DNA of 5,017 nucleotides from a virus (Duplodnaviria; Heunggongvirae; Uroviricota; Caudoviricetes), in IMG/VR virus record IMGVR_UViG_2585427728_000001. One strand, 5' to 3'. The position numbers were made by a program, and so were the translations under genes. Shown piece by piece: positions 991-5,017 of this stretch (position 1 is its first letter; each line of letters begins with the position of its first letter). Under the pieces are notes generated by a model that saw nothing but the letters and a program-made list of their open reading frames with translations, ran no database searches and was not told where the DNA came from.

Positions 991-1015
991 GCCTCGCATT
1001 CGCGGGGCTTTTTAT
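991..1015 (+). terminator. Putative rho-independent terminator downstream of the lysis cassette
   Basis: GCCTCGC-ATTC-GCGGGGC forms a 7-bp GC-rich stem (one G-U pair) with a 4-nt loop, immediately followed by TTTTTAT. It lies about 175 nt after the Rz stop and about 140 nt before the Rha start. Confidence 0.45.
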
Positions 1016-1157
1016 ATCTGAATTTCACAGCGCATCTCACGCGCATATTAACGAGAGCCTTTCAGTAAGCGAGCCTGAGAAATGCCGTTATAGGTGGCGA
1101 CCTCTCTCGGGCGGCTTTTCTGTGAGACAGGCTCACTTTCTAAAAGGTAAAGACGCT

Positions 1158-1682
1158 ATGAATAATCATTCAGTTATTCCAGCCTTCGACTTCCGAGAAA
1201 TGGTGCAAGCCAAAAACGGAGAGGTCGTTACCACATCCAGAAAAATTGCCAAGTACTTCGGCAAGCGACACGGTGATGTTCTCAGGAAAATCGAGCAGGT
1301 TAAGGCTGATTGCTCGCGTGAGTTTAGCCAACGCAATTTTGCGTCGGCTGATTATATCGATGAGCAGGGCAAGGTTCGCCCGATGTACAGCCTGACGAAA
1401 GATGGCTGGATCATGGTTGTGATGGGGTTCACCGGGAAAGCTGCTGCGGCAATCAAGGAGAGCTATATCGCAGCATTCAACTGGATGGCAGAACAACTGA
1501 GCCGCCGCATGGCAATTGGCGAAGAAATGCAGCACCGCTACGCCATCAAAGAAACACGCTCAAAGCTGAAAGGTACGATCGGCAGTCGGTTAATGAACGA
1601 ACGGAAGAAAGAGAAGCGTGTCCTGGCTGTCGAGCATGAATACATCTTGCAGGTGACACAGCCTGAACTGCTGATTAATTGA
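1158..1682 (+). CDS. rha: Rha-family phage regulatory protein (Phage_pRha domain)
   Basis: 174-aa product starting MNNHSVIPAFDFREMVQAKNGEVVTTSRKIAKYFGKRHGDVLRKIEQ...MYSLTKDGWIMVVMGFTGKAAAAIKESYIAAFNWM. The TTSRKIAKYFGKRHGDVLRKI and LTKDGW..MGFTGK..A..K..YI.AF motifs are characteristic of the Rha family. ATG 1158 follows AAAGGTAAAG. The longer ORF in the track (from 915) is a TTG-initiated extension that runs through the terminator hairpin and is rejected. Confidence 0.85.
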   Translation: MNNHSVIPAFDFREMVQAKNGEVVTTSRKIAKYFGKRHGDVLRKIEQVKADCSREFSQRNFASADYIDEQGKVRPMYSLTKDGWIMVVMGFTGKAAAAIKESYIAAFNWMAEQLSRRMAIGEEMQHRYAIKETRSKLKGTIGSRLMNERKKEKRVLAVEHEYILQVTQPELLIN

Positions 1683-1984: not shown

Positions 1985-2395
1985 TTAGTGTGGAAACATT
2001 TGTGATGTGCTCTGTATGTTTTCAGTAAAGAGTAATGAATTATCAAAGGTATAGTAATATCTTTTTTGTTCGTGGATATTTGTAACCCACCGAAAAACTC
2101 CTGCTTTAGCAAGGTTTCTTCTGTATTCCTGAAATGTGATCTCTCTGGATTTCAGCTTATTAGAGGTCGTTTCTATAAGATGCCTATCCTTTGAAAATTT
2201 GACAGACACAATGTTTTTTAGGCCCTTTAATAACACTGTATTATCATTTTTTAATACAATATGAACATTCTCTGTGGCTAAATAGTAAATGTAATGTGAG
2301 ACATTGTGACGTTTTAGCTCAGAATAAAACCATTGATAGTTTAAATCGTTTCGAACTTTATCAAATATTTGTTTAAAAATGACTACCTGATCCAT
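1985..2395 (-). CDS. DUF1398-family prophage protein (YdfO/YbcV-like), AT-rich cargo gene
   Basis: Minus-strand ORF. The preferred start is ATG at 2395 ([27 protein letters not shown]...), preceded by GGAAGG about 8 nt upstream, giving 136 aa. The track start at 2410 has no Shine-Dalgarno sequence. GC content is about 32% against about 58% in the terminase region. Assignment to the YdfO/YbcV (DUF1398) family is from memory of E. coli cryptic-prophage proteins and is unverified. Confidence 0.7.
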
Positions 2396-2454
2396 AGATA
2401 AACCTTCCATGTGATATGAGGGGGGGCGTAGTCTGCACGATTATCTAAATTGCT

Positions 2455-2688
2455 TCAATCTGGTCTGATCTGTTTTCTGAGCAATTCAGTAATGTCACTC
2501 TTTTCTTTGTTTGCTTCAGGAGAAACTCTTTTTTCTGAGCACAGTCTCCGGCGGCAGGCTTCAATGACCCAGGCTGAGAAATTCCCGGACCCTTTTTGAT
2601 CAAGAGCGATGTTAATTTGTTCAATCATTTGGTTAGGAAAGCGGATGTTGCGGGTTGTTGTTCTGCGGGTTCTGTTCTTCGTTGACAT
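2455..2688 (-). CDS. DUF3950-family small protein (YnfO/YlcI-like), predicted ribbon-helix-helix-like DNA-binding protein
   Basis: 77-aa minus-strand ORF: MSTKNRTRRTTTRNIRFPNQMIEQINIALDQKGSGNFSAWVIEACRRRL.... A basic N-terminal tail, a short beta-strand (NIRFP), helix (NQMIEQINIALDQ), G-x-S/N turn (KGSGN) and second helix (FSAWVIEACRRRL) fit the ribbon-helix-helix pattern. It resembles E. coli prophage YlcI/YnfO proteins from memory. Confidence 0.8.
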   Translation of the reverse strand: MSTKNRTRRTTTRNIRFPNQMIEQINIALDQKGSGNFSAWVIEACRRRLCSEKRVSPEANKEKSDITELLRKQIRPD

Positions 2689-3076: not shown

Positions 3077-3622
3077 ATGGAAGTCAACAAAAAGCAGCTG
3101 GCTGACATTTTCGGTGCGAGTATCCGTACCATTCAGAACTGGCAGGAACAGGGAATGCCCGTTCTGCGAGGCGGTGGCAAGGGTAATGAGGTGCTTTATG
3201 ACTCTGCCGCCGTCATAAAATGGTATGCCGAAAGGGATGCTGAAATTGAGAACGAAAAGCTGCGCCGGGAAGTTGAAGAACTGCGGCAGGCCAGCGAGAC
3301 AGATCTCCAGCCAGGGACTATTGAGTACGAACGCCATCGACTTACGCGTGCGCAGGCCGACGCACAGGAGCTGAAAAATGCCAGAGACTCCGCTGAAGTG
3401 GTGGAAACCGCATTCTGTACTTTCGTGCTGTCGCGGATCGCAGGTGAAATTGCCAGTATTCTCGACGGGATCCCCCTGTCGGTGCAGCGGCGTTTTCCGG
3501 AACTGGAAAACCGACATGTTGATTTCCTGAAACGGGATATCATCAAAGCCATGAACAAAGCAGCCGCGCTGGATGAACTGATACCGGGGTTGCTGAGTGA
3601 ATATATCGAACAGTCAGGTTAA
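3077..3622 (+). CDS. nu1: Terminase small subunit Nu1 (lambda gpNu1-like, winged-HTH cosB-binding protein)
   Basis: 181-aa product MEVNKKQLADIFGASIRTIQNWQEQGMPVLRGGGKGNEVLYDSAAVIKWYAERDAEIENEKLRREVEELRQ.... This is the same length as lambda gpNu1 and essentially collinear with it as recalled. It has an N-terminal helix-turn-helix, sits immediately downstream of cosB, and its 3' end overlaps the start of gene A by 26 nt as in lambda. Confidence 0.97.
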   Translation: MEVNKKQLADIFGASIRTIQNWQEQGMPVLRGGGKGNEVLYDSAAVIKWYAERDAEIENEKLRREVEELRQASETDLQPGTIEYERHRLTRAQADAQELKNARDSAEVVETAFCTFVLSRIAGEIASILDGIPLSVQRRFPELENRHVDFLKRDIIKAMNKAAALDELIPGLLSEYIEQSG

Positions 3623-4835
3623 CAGGCTGCGGCATTTTGTCCGCGCCGGGCTTCGCTCACTGTTCAGGCCGGAGCCACAGACCGCCGTTGAATGGGCGGA
3701 TGCCAATTACTATCTCCCAAAAGAATCCGCATACCAGGAAGGGCGCTGGGAAACACTGCCCTTTCAGCGGGCCATCATGAATGCGATGGGCAGCGACTAC
3801 ATCCGTGAGGTGAATGTGGTGAAGTCTGCCCGTGTCGGTTATTCCAAAATGCTGCTGGGTGTTTATGCCTACTTTATAGAGCATAAGCAGCGCAACACCC
3901 TTATCTGGTTGCCGACGGATGGTGATGCCGAGAACTTTATGAAAACCCACGTTGAGCCGACCATCCGCGATATTCCGTCGCTGCTGGCGCTGGCTCCGTG
4001 GTATGGCAAAAAGCACCGGGATAACACGCTCACCATGAAGCGTTTTTCCAATGGTCGTGGCTTCTGGTGCCTGGGCGGTAAAGCGGCAAAAAACTACCGT
4101 GAAAAGTCGGTGGATGTGGCGGGTTATGATGAACTTGCTGCCTTTGATGAGGATATTGAACAGGAAGGCTCTCCGACGTTCCTTGGCGACAAACGTATTG
4201 AAGGCTCGGTCTGGCCAAAGTCCATCCGTGGCTCCACGCCCAAAGTGAGAGGCACCTGCCAGATTGAGCGTGCAGCCAGTGAATCCCCGCATTTTATGCG
4301 TTTTCATGTTGCCTGCCCGCACTGCGGGGAGGAGCAGTATCTTAAATTTGGCGACAAAGAGGCGCCGTTTGGCCTCAAATGGACGCCGGATGACCCCTCC
4401 AGCGTGTTTTATCTCTGCGAGCATAATGCCTGCGTCATCCGCCAGCAGGAGCTGGACTTTACTGATGCCCGTTATATCTGCGAAAAGACCGGGATCTGGA
4501 CCCGTGATGGCATTCTCTGGTTTTCGTCATCCGGTGAAGAGATTGAGCCGCCGGACAGTGTGACCTTTCACATCTGGACGGCGTACAGCCCGTTCACCAC
4601 CTGGGTGCAGATTGTCAAAGACTGGATGAAGACGAAAGGGGATACGGGAAAACGTAAAACCTTCGTGAACACCACGCTCGGTGAGACATGGGAAGCGAAA
4701 ATTGGCGAACGTCCGGATGCTGAGGGTAAGCGACTCGTCAGAACCGTATTGATATTTACTGAGAGCTCAGATCAACTTTCCAGGGCAACAGATCGCGTAC
4801 CCGGTTTGCCGGCCAGTCCTGGATATGTTCAATGA
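3597..4835 (+). CDS. A: Terminase large subunit gpA, C-terminally truncated by an IS66-family insertion (probable pseudogene; A-derived part 3597-4724, last 36 codons read into the IS)
   Basis: MNISNSQVNRLRHFVRAGLRSLFRPEPQTAVEWADANYYLPKESAYQEGRWETLPFQRAIMNAMGSDYIREVNVVKSARVGYSKMLLG... follows lambda gpA (641 aa) as recalled, including the Walker-A-like VKSARVGYSK, up to ...GETWEAKIGERPDAE (codon 376). Lambda then continues VMAERKEHYSAP..., whereas here the frame reads GKRLVRTVLIFTESSDQLSRATDRVPGLPASPGYVQ and stops. The nucleotide sequence from 4726 onward is unrelated to lambda. Confidence 0.92.
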   Translation: MNISNSQVNRLRHFVRAGLRSLFRPEPQTAVEWADANYYLPKESAYQEGRWETLPFQRAIMNAMGSDYIREVNVVKSARVGYSKMLLGVYAYFIEHKQRNTLIWLPTDGDAENFMKTHVEPTIRDIPSLLALAPWYGKKHRDNTLTMKRFSNGRGFWCLGGKAAKNYREKSVDVAGYDELAAFDEDIEQEGSPTFLGDKRIEGSVWPKSIRGSTPKVRGTCQIERAASESPHFMRFHVACPHCGEEQYLKFGDKEAPFGLKWTPDDPSSVFYLCEHNACVIRQQELDFTDARYICEKTGIWTRDGILWFSSSGEEIEPPDSVTFHIWTAYSPFTTWVQIVKDWMKTKGDTGKRKTFVNTTLGETWEAKIGERPDAEGKRLVRTVLIFTESSDQLSRATDRVPGLPASPGYVQ

Positions 4836-5017
4836 CGTAACGCAGCCACTTTTCTGGCTCCACATTGTTCAGACGGCATGTGCCGATCAGCGAGTACAAC
4901 ACCGCCGCATGTTCACCACCGCTGTCGGAACCCGCGAACATCCAGTTTTTCCGGCCTACGGCCACTCCCCGTAAGGCGTTCTCTGCGATGTTGTTGTCGA
5001 TTTCCACCCAGCCATTA
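4726..5017 (-). mobile_element. IS66-family insertion sequence, one terminus plus the 3' end of its transposase gene; the element continues beyond the window
   Basis: Homology to lambda A ends at 4724-4725. The new sequence starts GTAAGCGACTCGTCAGAACCG..., and GTAAGCG is recalled as the typical start of IS66-family terminal inverted repeats. The minus-strand ORF 4756-5017 encodes an IS66 TnpC-like C-terminus. The boundary is uncertain by about 2 nt, and the other IS end and any 8-bp target duplication are outside the window. Confidence 0.85.
4756..5017 (-). CDS. IS66-family transposase (TnpC-like), C-terminal fragment; the 5' part of the gene lies beyond the window end
   Basis: The minus-strand frame is open to the window edge (...NGWVEIDNNIAENALRGVAVGRKNWMFAGSDSGGEHAAVLYSLIGTCRLNNVEPEKWLRYVIEHIQDWPANRVRDLLPWKVDLSSQ, stop at 4756-4758). 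The NxAEnALRxxAVGRKNWxFAGSxxGGExAAxxYSLI motif is typical of IS66-family transposase C-termini. The M at 5007 in the track is an artefactual GTG start. Confidence 0.9.
   Translation of the reverse strand, partial: NGWVEIDNNIAENALRGVAVGRKNWMFAGSDSGGEHAAVLYSLIGTCRLNNVEPEKWLRYVIEHIQDWPANRVRDLLPWKVDLSSQ

Follow-up and report, generated by a model that had tools for sequence, protein, structure and literature searches.

A conserved structured leader RNA between a terminator and the rha gene of a lambdoid prophage

We analysed a 5,017-nucleotide stretch of caudoviral DNA (IMG/VR record IMGVR_UViG_2585427728_000001; hereafter the window, to which all positions refer unless another record is named). 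The window matches the chromosomes of Escherichia coli ET881 and SW071610 at 100%, and at least 80% of it is present in 332 complete E. coli genomes. Our subject is the rha gene (1158-1682, + strand; ATG 1158 to TGA 1682, 174 amino acids) together with the segment that separates it from the lysis genes. This segment contains an intrinsic terminator (990-1014, + strand) and, behind it, a conserved structured leader RNA of about 140 nt (1017-1157, + strand), which ends at the rha ATG. The same region had been proposed as the rha promoter region in a first-pass annotation of this DNA.

The product of rha belongs to the Rha family, as the first-pass annotation had supposed. A search with the Phage_pRha profile (PF09669) gave 99.1 bits (E=2.2e-28) against a cut-off of 29.9, the NCBIfam model TIGR02681 gave 113.8 bits (cut-off 45.95), and phrog_518 was matched at E=4e-78. 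RefSeq holds a coding sequence (CDS) with the same coordinates, named 'Rha family transcriptional regulator'. The Rha domain is N-terminal (residues 25-111); it is followed by a C-terminal region with homology to the ORF11CD3-type tail found in other members of the family. Rha proteins are often labelled antirepressor-like, and PHROG 'anti-repressor' families were indeed matched, with E-values from 4e-32 to 1e-17. These similarities suggest that Rha is a DNA-binding, antirepressor-like regulator. A sequence search of the PDB matched no solved structure, and the defence-system search of PADLOC gave no match for rha. The only genetically defined effect of Rha, seen in phi80 and P22, is that it blocks lytic phage growth in hosts lacking IHF (himA/hip) (cited in PMC4936722). 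Near rha we found a single IHF-consensus-like site, AATCATTCAGTTA (12/13, 1164-1176, + strand), within codons 3-7. It was rejected as a conserved element, its phi80 counterpart having two mismatches.

The placement of rha after the lysis genes is already known from phi80, HK639 and P22. In phi80 (JX871397, 43609-44293), Rz/Rz1 are followed by a 'putative rightward transcription terminator' (43609-43631), about 110-140 nt and rha (43739-44293), a few kb before cos. The window gene is a syntenic ortholog of phi80 rha, which is the archetype of the family and the gene cited in the first-pass annotation; the DNA of the two is 79% identical, and the proteins are 73% identical from end to end. The leaders of the two are 100% identical over 1031-1166, while the coding regions agree at only about 79% of positions. 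The window differs from phi80 in having an extra 50-codon open reading frame (ORF) before the terminator and ybcV/ylcI-type genes downstream of rha instead of genes 63-66, and its rha copy sits in a decayed prophage. HK639 has the same arrangement of Rz/Rz1, terminator and rha as the window. In P22, rha (ORF201) likewise follows gene 15/Rz1 and is preceded by the same kind of terminator. However, P22 Rha is only 37% identical to the window protein, and P22 packages by pac and not by cos.

The start codon ATG 1158 is invariant among all relatives and is also the RefSeq start. Two in-frame upstream extensions exist in the window: an ORF from TTG 915, which crosses the hairpin, and one from GTG 1122, which runs through the leader. 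In the phi80 record (L001, CDS 3132-3686) rha is extended by 36 nt to an in-frame GTG within the conserved leader; in P22 (ORF201; L137, CDS 876-1481) the annotated start lies 70 nt upstream, also inside the leader, and the CUS-3 start (L006, CDS 1609-2220) is placed likewise. The invariant ATG with its Shine-Dalgarno sequence suggests that the N-terminal extensions of rha in these records are annotation artefacts.

The terminator consists of the stem AGCCTCGC-ATTC-GCGGGGCT (990-1009), with 8 bp, 6 G-C pairs and a 4-nt loop, followed by TTTTT (1010-1014). The hairpin folds with -14.1 kcal/mol (z = -4.3), and none of 200 shuffled sequences was as stable. A simple scan of the window found seven terminator-like sites against 5.5 expected, which for the scan alone is not above chance. 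Among 67 related leaders, a hairpin with a T-run was found at the same position in 60 (51 distinct sequences, with at least 10 different stems); stem variants include GCCTGAC/GTCGGGC, GCCAGC/GCTGGC, GCCCGGC/CCGGGC and GGCTACC/GGTGGCC. We judged the terminator to be real because it is conserved across relatives with stems that have changed and still pair. The GenBank records of phi80, HK639, HK106 and epsilon34 mark the corresponding hairpin as a terminator. Read on the minus strand, the hairpin is not followed by a T-run. A terminator between Rz/Rz1 and rha had been proposed before and is borne out; the statement that rha comes directly after the lysis cassette is not, as the 50-codon ORF intervenes.

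The leader is widespread. A blastn search with 985-1160 detected it in at least 163 phage records, comprising lambdoid, P22-like, Stx1/Stx2, Klebsiella, Enterobacter, Hafnia and Edwardsiella phages, and a scan of IMG/VR with the core pattern gave more than 120 loci. It was also found in 36 phage-sized 'plasmids', 33 of which are non-mobilizable. We built a covariance model (R1) from 67 distinct leaders. The model scored the window leader at 158.7 bits and the 67 copies at 53-158 bits, and it also picked up sequence-divergent leaders of the P22 type at 53-66 bits. When IMG/VR was scanned with a P22-type pattern, most matches were due to chance and about 40 loci were real.

In every case, the end of the leader coincides with the start codon of the next gene, whichever gene that is. 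Besides Rha, the cargo encoded after the leader includes KilA-N proteins (HK620 hkbK, SPN3UB), T5orf172/MUG113 (HK106), AntA (EPP-1), ANT/KilAC and P22_AR_N proteins, as well as HNH_3 endonucleases, small membrane proteins and unknown proteins. Several phages carry a second copy of the leader, as the covariance model showed. In phi80 (L001, 4621-4747) it precedes gene 66, which is N15 gp59-like, and in the Stx phage Lyz12581Vzw (L009, 147-293) it precedes ant (P22_AR_N), which is inserted between R and Rz. Other second copies lie at L016 (8502-8625), L030 (3245-3370), L123 (560-703), L096 (341-472), L054 (11112-11255) and L152 (1100-1240), some of them before HNH_3 genes. Five of the eight second copies, including those before phi80 gene 66 and the Stx ant gene, have no upstream terminator.

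The single-sequence minimum free energy fold consists of the terminator, a small helix P0 and a long interrupted hairpin (1057-1148). P0 (1030-1044, + strand) is formed by GCGC 1030-1033 with GCGC 1041-1044. The 5' side of the long hairpin comprises, all on the + strand, strand B (CCUUUCAGUAAG, 1058-1069), which is an anti-Shine-Dalgarno strand, strand C (GAGCCUG, 1071-1077) and strand D/E (AGAAAUGCCG, 1078-1087). It is capped by a variable apical hairpin F (AGGU-GGCG-ACCU, 1092-1103, + strand) that is absent in mEp237 and in the second phi80 copy. The 3' strands (1112-1147, + strand) are E'/D' (1112-1121), a 6-nt bulge (1122-1127), C' (1128-1134) and B' (1136-1147). The Shine-Dalgarno sequence AAAGG (1143-1147) lies within B' and pairs with CCUUU of B. 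The sequence GGTGGCGACCTC of the apical hairpin (1093-1104) shares 11 of 12 positions with cosN (local-shuffle p of about 0.01); as P22-like phages of the pac type have this hairpin too, the likeness is probably fortuitous.

The fold is supported by covariation. In the 67-sequence alignment, 87.2% of the cells are standard-paired, compared to 38-51% when partners are slid, and 12 pairs have changed on both sides, compared to 5.4 in shuffled alignments, none of which reached 12 in 500 trials. RNAalifold, run on the model-based alignment, returned 23 pairs, 17 of them with compensatory changes. P0 is paired in 98% of the cells, with a CG to UA compensatory change in two to four sequences and GCGCC/GGCGT in phage EPP-1. 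The helix that contains the Shine-Dalgarno sequence, B-B', covaries as well, reading CCUUAUAG/CUAUAAGG in EPP-1 and CACAUAG/CUAUGUG in L054. The leader thus has what is seen in leaders of the translational-operator type, a covarying helix that pairs the Shine-Dalgarno sequence.

A further helix joins strand A (CGAGAG, 1052-1057, + strand), directly 5' of helix B, to strand A' (CUCUCG, 1104-1109, + strand). Because A-A' crosses the other helices, it forms a pseudoknot. A-A' is paired in 97% of the cells, with three of its six pairs changed on both sides. In a test with constrained positions, 16 of 17 distinct versions formed at least 5 bp (mean 6.2), compared to a mean of 1.9 when A and A' were swapped between versions. 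This test supersedes a more permissive one, in which a free 22-nt upstream window gave 6.7 bp against about 5.4 bp in shuffled controls. The helix is kept in at least 12 different sequence versions. These include CGAGAG/CUCUCG, CCCGAG/CUCGGG, AGAGAG/CUCUCU, CACAGAG/CUCUGUG, GAAAG/CUUUC, CCAGAG/CUCUGG, CGCAGAG/CUCUGCG, CCUAGAG/CUCUGGG, CACAGAA/UUCUGUG and CUCAGAA/UUCUGAG, and among P22-type leaders CACCGA/UCGGUG and CGUCGA/UCGACG. The pseudoknot counts were obtained with a MAFFT alignment (A2) and a script; the covariance-model alignment shifts A' by one column in one subtype. As A is joined to B, and A' nearly to E', all helices could coexist if the bulge at 1122-1127 aligned the arms side by side.

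The P22 leader shares this architecture (P0, A-A', B, C and D/E) in another sequence and scores 65 bits with the covariance model. It differs from the window leader in having 8 nt between A and B and a Shine-Dalgarno sequence just outside the basal helix. Two further structural candidates were rejected. A two-state switch via an alternative hairpin CUUUCAG/CUGAGAA is, by eye, not kept in EPP-1, L054 and P22, and on inspection the 6-nt bulge does not fit the G-A/A-G consensus of a k-turn.

We also compared the leader with described RNAs. The covariance models of Rfam 15 gave nothing at E<=1 over the whole window, and with lax filters 960-1200 gave only chance matches to miRNA and snoRNA models (at most 19 bits, where 50-101 are required). 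A full-text literature search with leader sequence strings returned only primer coincidences among the matches listed. A riboswitch class was rejected: the fold is conserved, yet the downstream genes encode unrelated DNA-binding proteins, nucleases and unknowns and are not drawn from a single metabolic or transport pathway. The leader appears to represent a family not described so far within a known kind of RNA, the 5' leader that occludes the ribosome-binding site, here with a pseudoknot and a coupled terminator.

Two known types of RNA control are close to this. In the IsrK-orf45-anrP system of the Salmonella prophage Gifsy-1, as here, a structured RNA lies directly upstream of an antirepressor-type gene and a short RNA accumulates; RNA structure there governs how the long transcript is translated, as we propose for rha (system cited in PMC13397905). 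IsrK is expressed from a promoter of its own, and the long transcript on which it acts in trans is also its own. The rha leader differs from it in showing no similarity to the Rfam isrK model. P1 c4 and P22 sar are antisense RNAs of immI regions, in which translation of a harmful antirepressor is held down by RNA around the ribosome-binding site, similar to the role we propose for the leader. Unlike these, the rha leader is an intramolecular fold in a late operon, and it has no c4 or sar match in Rfam.

The P22 counterpart of the leader has been detected as an RNA. A 2026 study of P22 small RNAs describes 'P22F', an 89-nt + strand RNA that is present in infected cells and vesicles and absent from uninfected cells, with a 3' end 6 nt before the rha ATG; it was entered with 'no known function' (PMC13397905). 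When mapped on P22, P22F spans helices C to E plus the 3' tail, while its 5' end falls within helix B and strand A is not included. P22F has the appearance of a fragment processed from a longer RNA, because its 5' end lies in helix B and nothing promoter-like was found upstream. The leader could alternatively be mainly a small RNA gene of its own, cut from the late transcript and acting in trans or exported, for which the position before rha would be secondary. This would agree with the accumulation of a stable 89-nt RNA in P22-infected cells and vesicles (PMC13397905), and the core sequence is conserved beyond what structure alone would need. However, the leader keeps a fixed distance to an ATG with a Shine-Dalgarno sequence whatever gene follows, and P22F, without strand A, cannot hold the covarying pseudoknot. 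Moreover, no -10-like hexamer was seen by eye just upstream of the P22F 5' end, and a scan found no terminator of the leader's own before the ATG. We therefore consider it improbable that the leader is mainly a small RNA gene.

The first-pass annotation had taken the hairpin as the end of the late or lysis transcript and rha as an autonomous, moron-like unit, expressed in the prophage from its own promoter in 1016-1157 and serving lysogenic conversion or superinfection modulation. The terminator is indeed real and strong, and the slot is a known cargo position in which cargo is swapped among phages. Compared to DLP12 of E. coli K-12, the window is homologous over 1-592 (the lysozyme gene and the first half of Rz), diverges over 593-1796 and becomes homologous again at ybcV; the DLP12 counterpart of 593-1796 is the Rz C-terminus and borD. 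The earlier placement of rha in the bor slot is therefore correct. With bor of lambda and borD of DLP12, rha shares the slot bounded by Rz on one side and the ybcV/cos region on the other, and the flanks are homologous. However, bor is on the opposite strand and has its own promoter, from which it is expressed in the lysogen, whereas rha is on the late strand, behind a terminator and without a detectable promoter.

A consensus scan of the + strand of 1016-1157 passed no sigma-70-like site, although an atypical promoter is beyond the reach of such scans. The best lenient candidate, TTCACA-16-TATTAA (1024-1051, 9/12), has no T at -7, and many relatives in the alignment do not have its -35 segment. 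Transcription predicted from it would begin 3' of strand A, and strand A belongs to the covarying RNA. In many relatives the distance from the terminator T-run to P0 is down to 6 nt, which leaves no room for a promoter there, and since all of 1030-1147 covaries as RNA, and hence lies inside a transcript, the start of transcription has to be sought further upstream. It is textbook knowledge that the late genes of lambdoid phages are transcribed by Q-modified polymerase, which reads through intrinsic terminators. Because such terminators are ignored by this polymerase, the hairpin after Rz does not part rha from the late transcript. Downstream of rha, the scan found no terminator-like site on the + strand (1683-1985), so that neither of the two marks of an autonomous unit, an own promoter and a downstream terminator, was found. 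P22 rha has been described as a late-operon gene (PMC4936722), and P22F was seen only during infection (PMC13397905). The proposed promoter in 1016-1157 and the separate transcription unit thus find no support, and neither does a role as lysogenic-conversion cargo, given that downstream terminator, promoter and defence-system match are all missing. An autonomous rha unit is in our view quite unlikely.

Very unlikely is a leader that is solely a DNA-level 'boundary sequence', a homology patch for cargo swapping by recombination without RNA function: identical leaders beside unrelated cargo, the full identity with the phi80 leader although the gene has diverged, and a conserved 64-nt patch 3' of the cargo would all fit it, but compensatory changes would be unexpected, and the A, B, C, D and E helices and the terminator keep pairing across sequences. 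A role as recombination patch and a role as RNA are mutually compatible.

We favour, with a probability of roughly two in three, a standard rha module of the lambdoid late operon, with read-through transcription and a leader that limits translation. Here rha would have no promoter of its own and would be transcribed by Q-modified, terminator-resistant polymerase that comes from the late promoter and passes the hairpin. Unmodified polymerase would be halted by the hairpin, leaving rha silent in the lysogen. On the late transcript, the folded leader would limit or time the access of ribosomes, so that little Rha would be made, or Rha would be made only after an opening event. Terminator and leader would together form a double lock before interchangeable, potentially harmful DNA-binding cargo. 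The read-through and the silencing in the lysogen are suggested by synteny, conservation and established Q biology, and the effect on translation is predicted from the paired Shine-Dalgarno sequence. Our consensus scan upstream of essD gave nothing usable as a late promoter.

Several points weigh against this reading. The read-through of the terminator at rha is itself a prediction from sequence, and a weak promoter-like match does exist in this copy of the leader, at 1024-1051. In ET881, the prophage has no early region, which puts the production of Q there in doubt. In P22-type leaders the basal helix does not include the Shine-Dalgarno sequence, which follows it directly on the 3' side, so that strict occlusion is not universal. 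A-A' and B-B' may alternate instead of coexisting. Moreover, the long hairpin (1052-1150) is predicted to be slightly more stable as its reverse complement (-40.2 kcal/mol) than in the sense orientation (-38.9 kcal/mol), and in the alignment G-U cells are only in slight excess over A-C cells (96 vs 75). As pairing alone is indecisive, we assigned the RNA to the + strand because of its lock to the downstream Shine-Dalgarno sequence and ATG, the + strand terminator upstream and the + strand P22F. Where the sense strand always has a C-A mismatch, the antisense strand would have a G-U pair. The minus strand of the leader may give rise to an antisense RNA.

The double lock could also be a more elaborate device. 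Terminator and pseudoknotted leader may form a portable cassette, an undescribed class of cis-regulatory phage RNA, that acts as a regulated gate and not as a static brake before harmful antirepressor-type genes (Rha, KilA-N, Ant) in enterobacterial temperate phages. The gate would be opened by a specific event, for example by a protein of the phage or the host, by Q-modified polymerase as it passes, or by an RNase cut in helix B, which would leave fragments like P22F, and it would possibly link IHF status to Rha toxicity. We put this forward as a tentative idea, which is rather doubtful at present.

The genes around the module are those of a lambdoid phage. Upstream of rha, profile matches identify a lysozyme gene (to 351), followed by the Rz spanin gene (348-815, + strand; PF03245, E=6.6e-31; the RefSeq CDS agrees), which is the last part of the lysis cassette, with Rz1 embedded in it (568-774, + strand; PF06085, E=7.6e-19). 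The 50-codon ORF (803-955, + strand) overlaps the Rz stop, lies upstream of the terminator and matches phrog_11822 over its full length (E=2e-37). Its N-terminus is hydrophobic, it is labelled hypothetical protein in RefSeq and in PhiR70_1, and no match was found in Pfam, NCBIfam or PADLOC.

Downstream of rha, the conserved 64-nt patch (1711-1774) is 92-94% identical in HK620, CUS-3 and HK106, where it follows different cargo and precedes the next gene; in P22 the homologous spot overlaps orf25. The patch may be the 3' boundary of an exchangeable cassette, or another regulatory element. It is followed by a DUF1398 (YbcV-like) gene (1985-2410, minus strand) and a DUF3950/YlcI-YnfO gene (2455-2688, minus strand), which are antisense to the late transcript and lie between rha and cos, as in DLP12. 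The label 'head protein' that PHROGs gives to the DUF1398 family looks doubtful. An exact cosN of the lambda type, GGGCGGCGACCT, is located at 2888-2899, 1.2 kb downstream of rha. This places rha in the right arm of the phage, within its last 1.7 kb, and the window covers the right end, cos and the left end. About 40 nt upstream of cosN, and directed towards Nu1, is the strongest sigma-70-like match of the window, GTGACA-16-TATCAT (10/12, 2825-2852, + strand). Beyond cosN we found Nu1 (3077-3622) and the terminase gene gpA (from 3597), which is interrupted near 4724. The truncation is due to an IS66-family element, of which the C-terminal end of the transposase lies at 4756-5007 (minus strand); in other E. 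coli strains the same prophage region carries IS3, IS1 or IS100.

In ET881 the window is part of a decayed prophage that occupies about 10 kb and is flanked by ybhC on one side and ybhB-bio on the other. It retains a truncated integrase gene, rusA, ylcG, quuD (Q antiterminator), a gene for an ompC-like porin on the opposite strand, essD, rrrD, Rz, the small ORF, rha, the DUF1398 gene, the ylcI-like gene, nohD and the gpA cut by the IS66-family element. Among these genes there is no immunity, replication or virion region.

The position of rha as first noted adds nothing new, and the promoter assigned to it was probably wrong. What lies between terminator and gene is a leader RNA with strong covariation and a pseudoknot, found in hundreds of lambdoid, P22-like, Stx, Klebsiella, Hafnia and Edwardsiella phages and usually placed behind a terminator. 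If the leader indeed controls translation, this would explain how toxic antirepressor-like genes are tolerated in late operons. It would also open a direct way into the control of rha expression, a question that has stood for 30 years, and the rha start codons in the phi80 and P22 reference records would have to be corrected. The leader is in addition of relevance to Stx phages, in which two copies of it are found.

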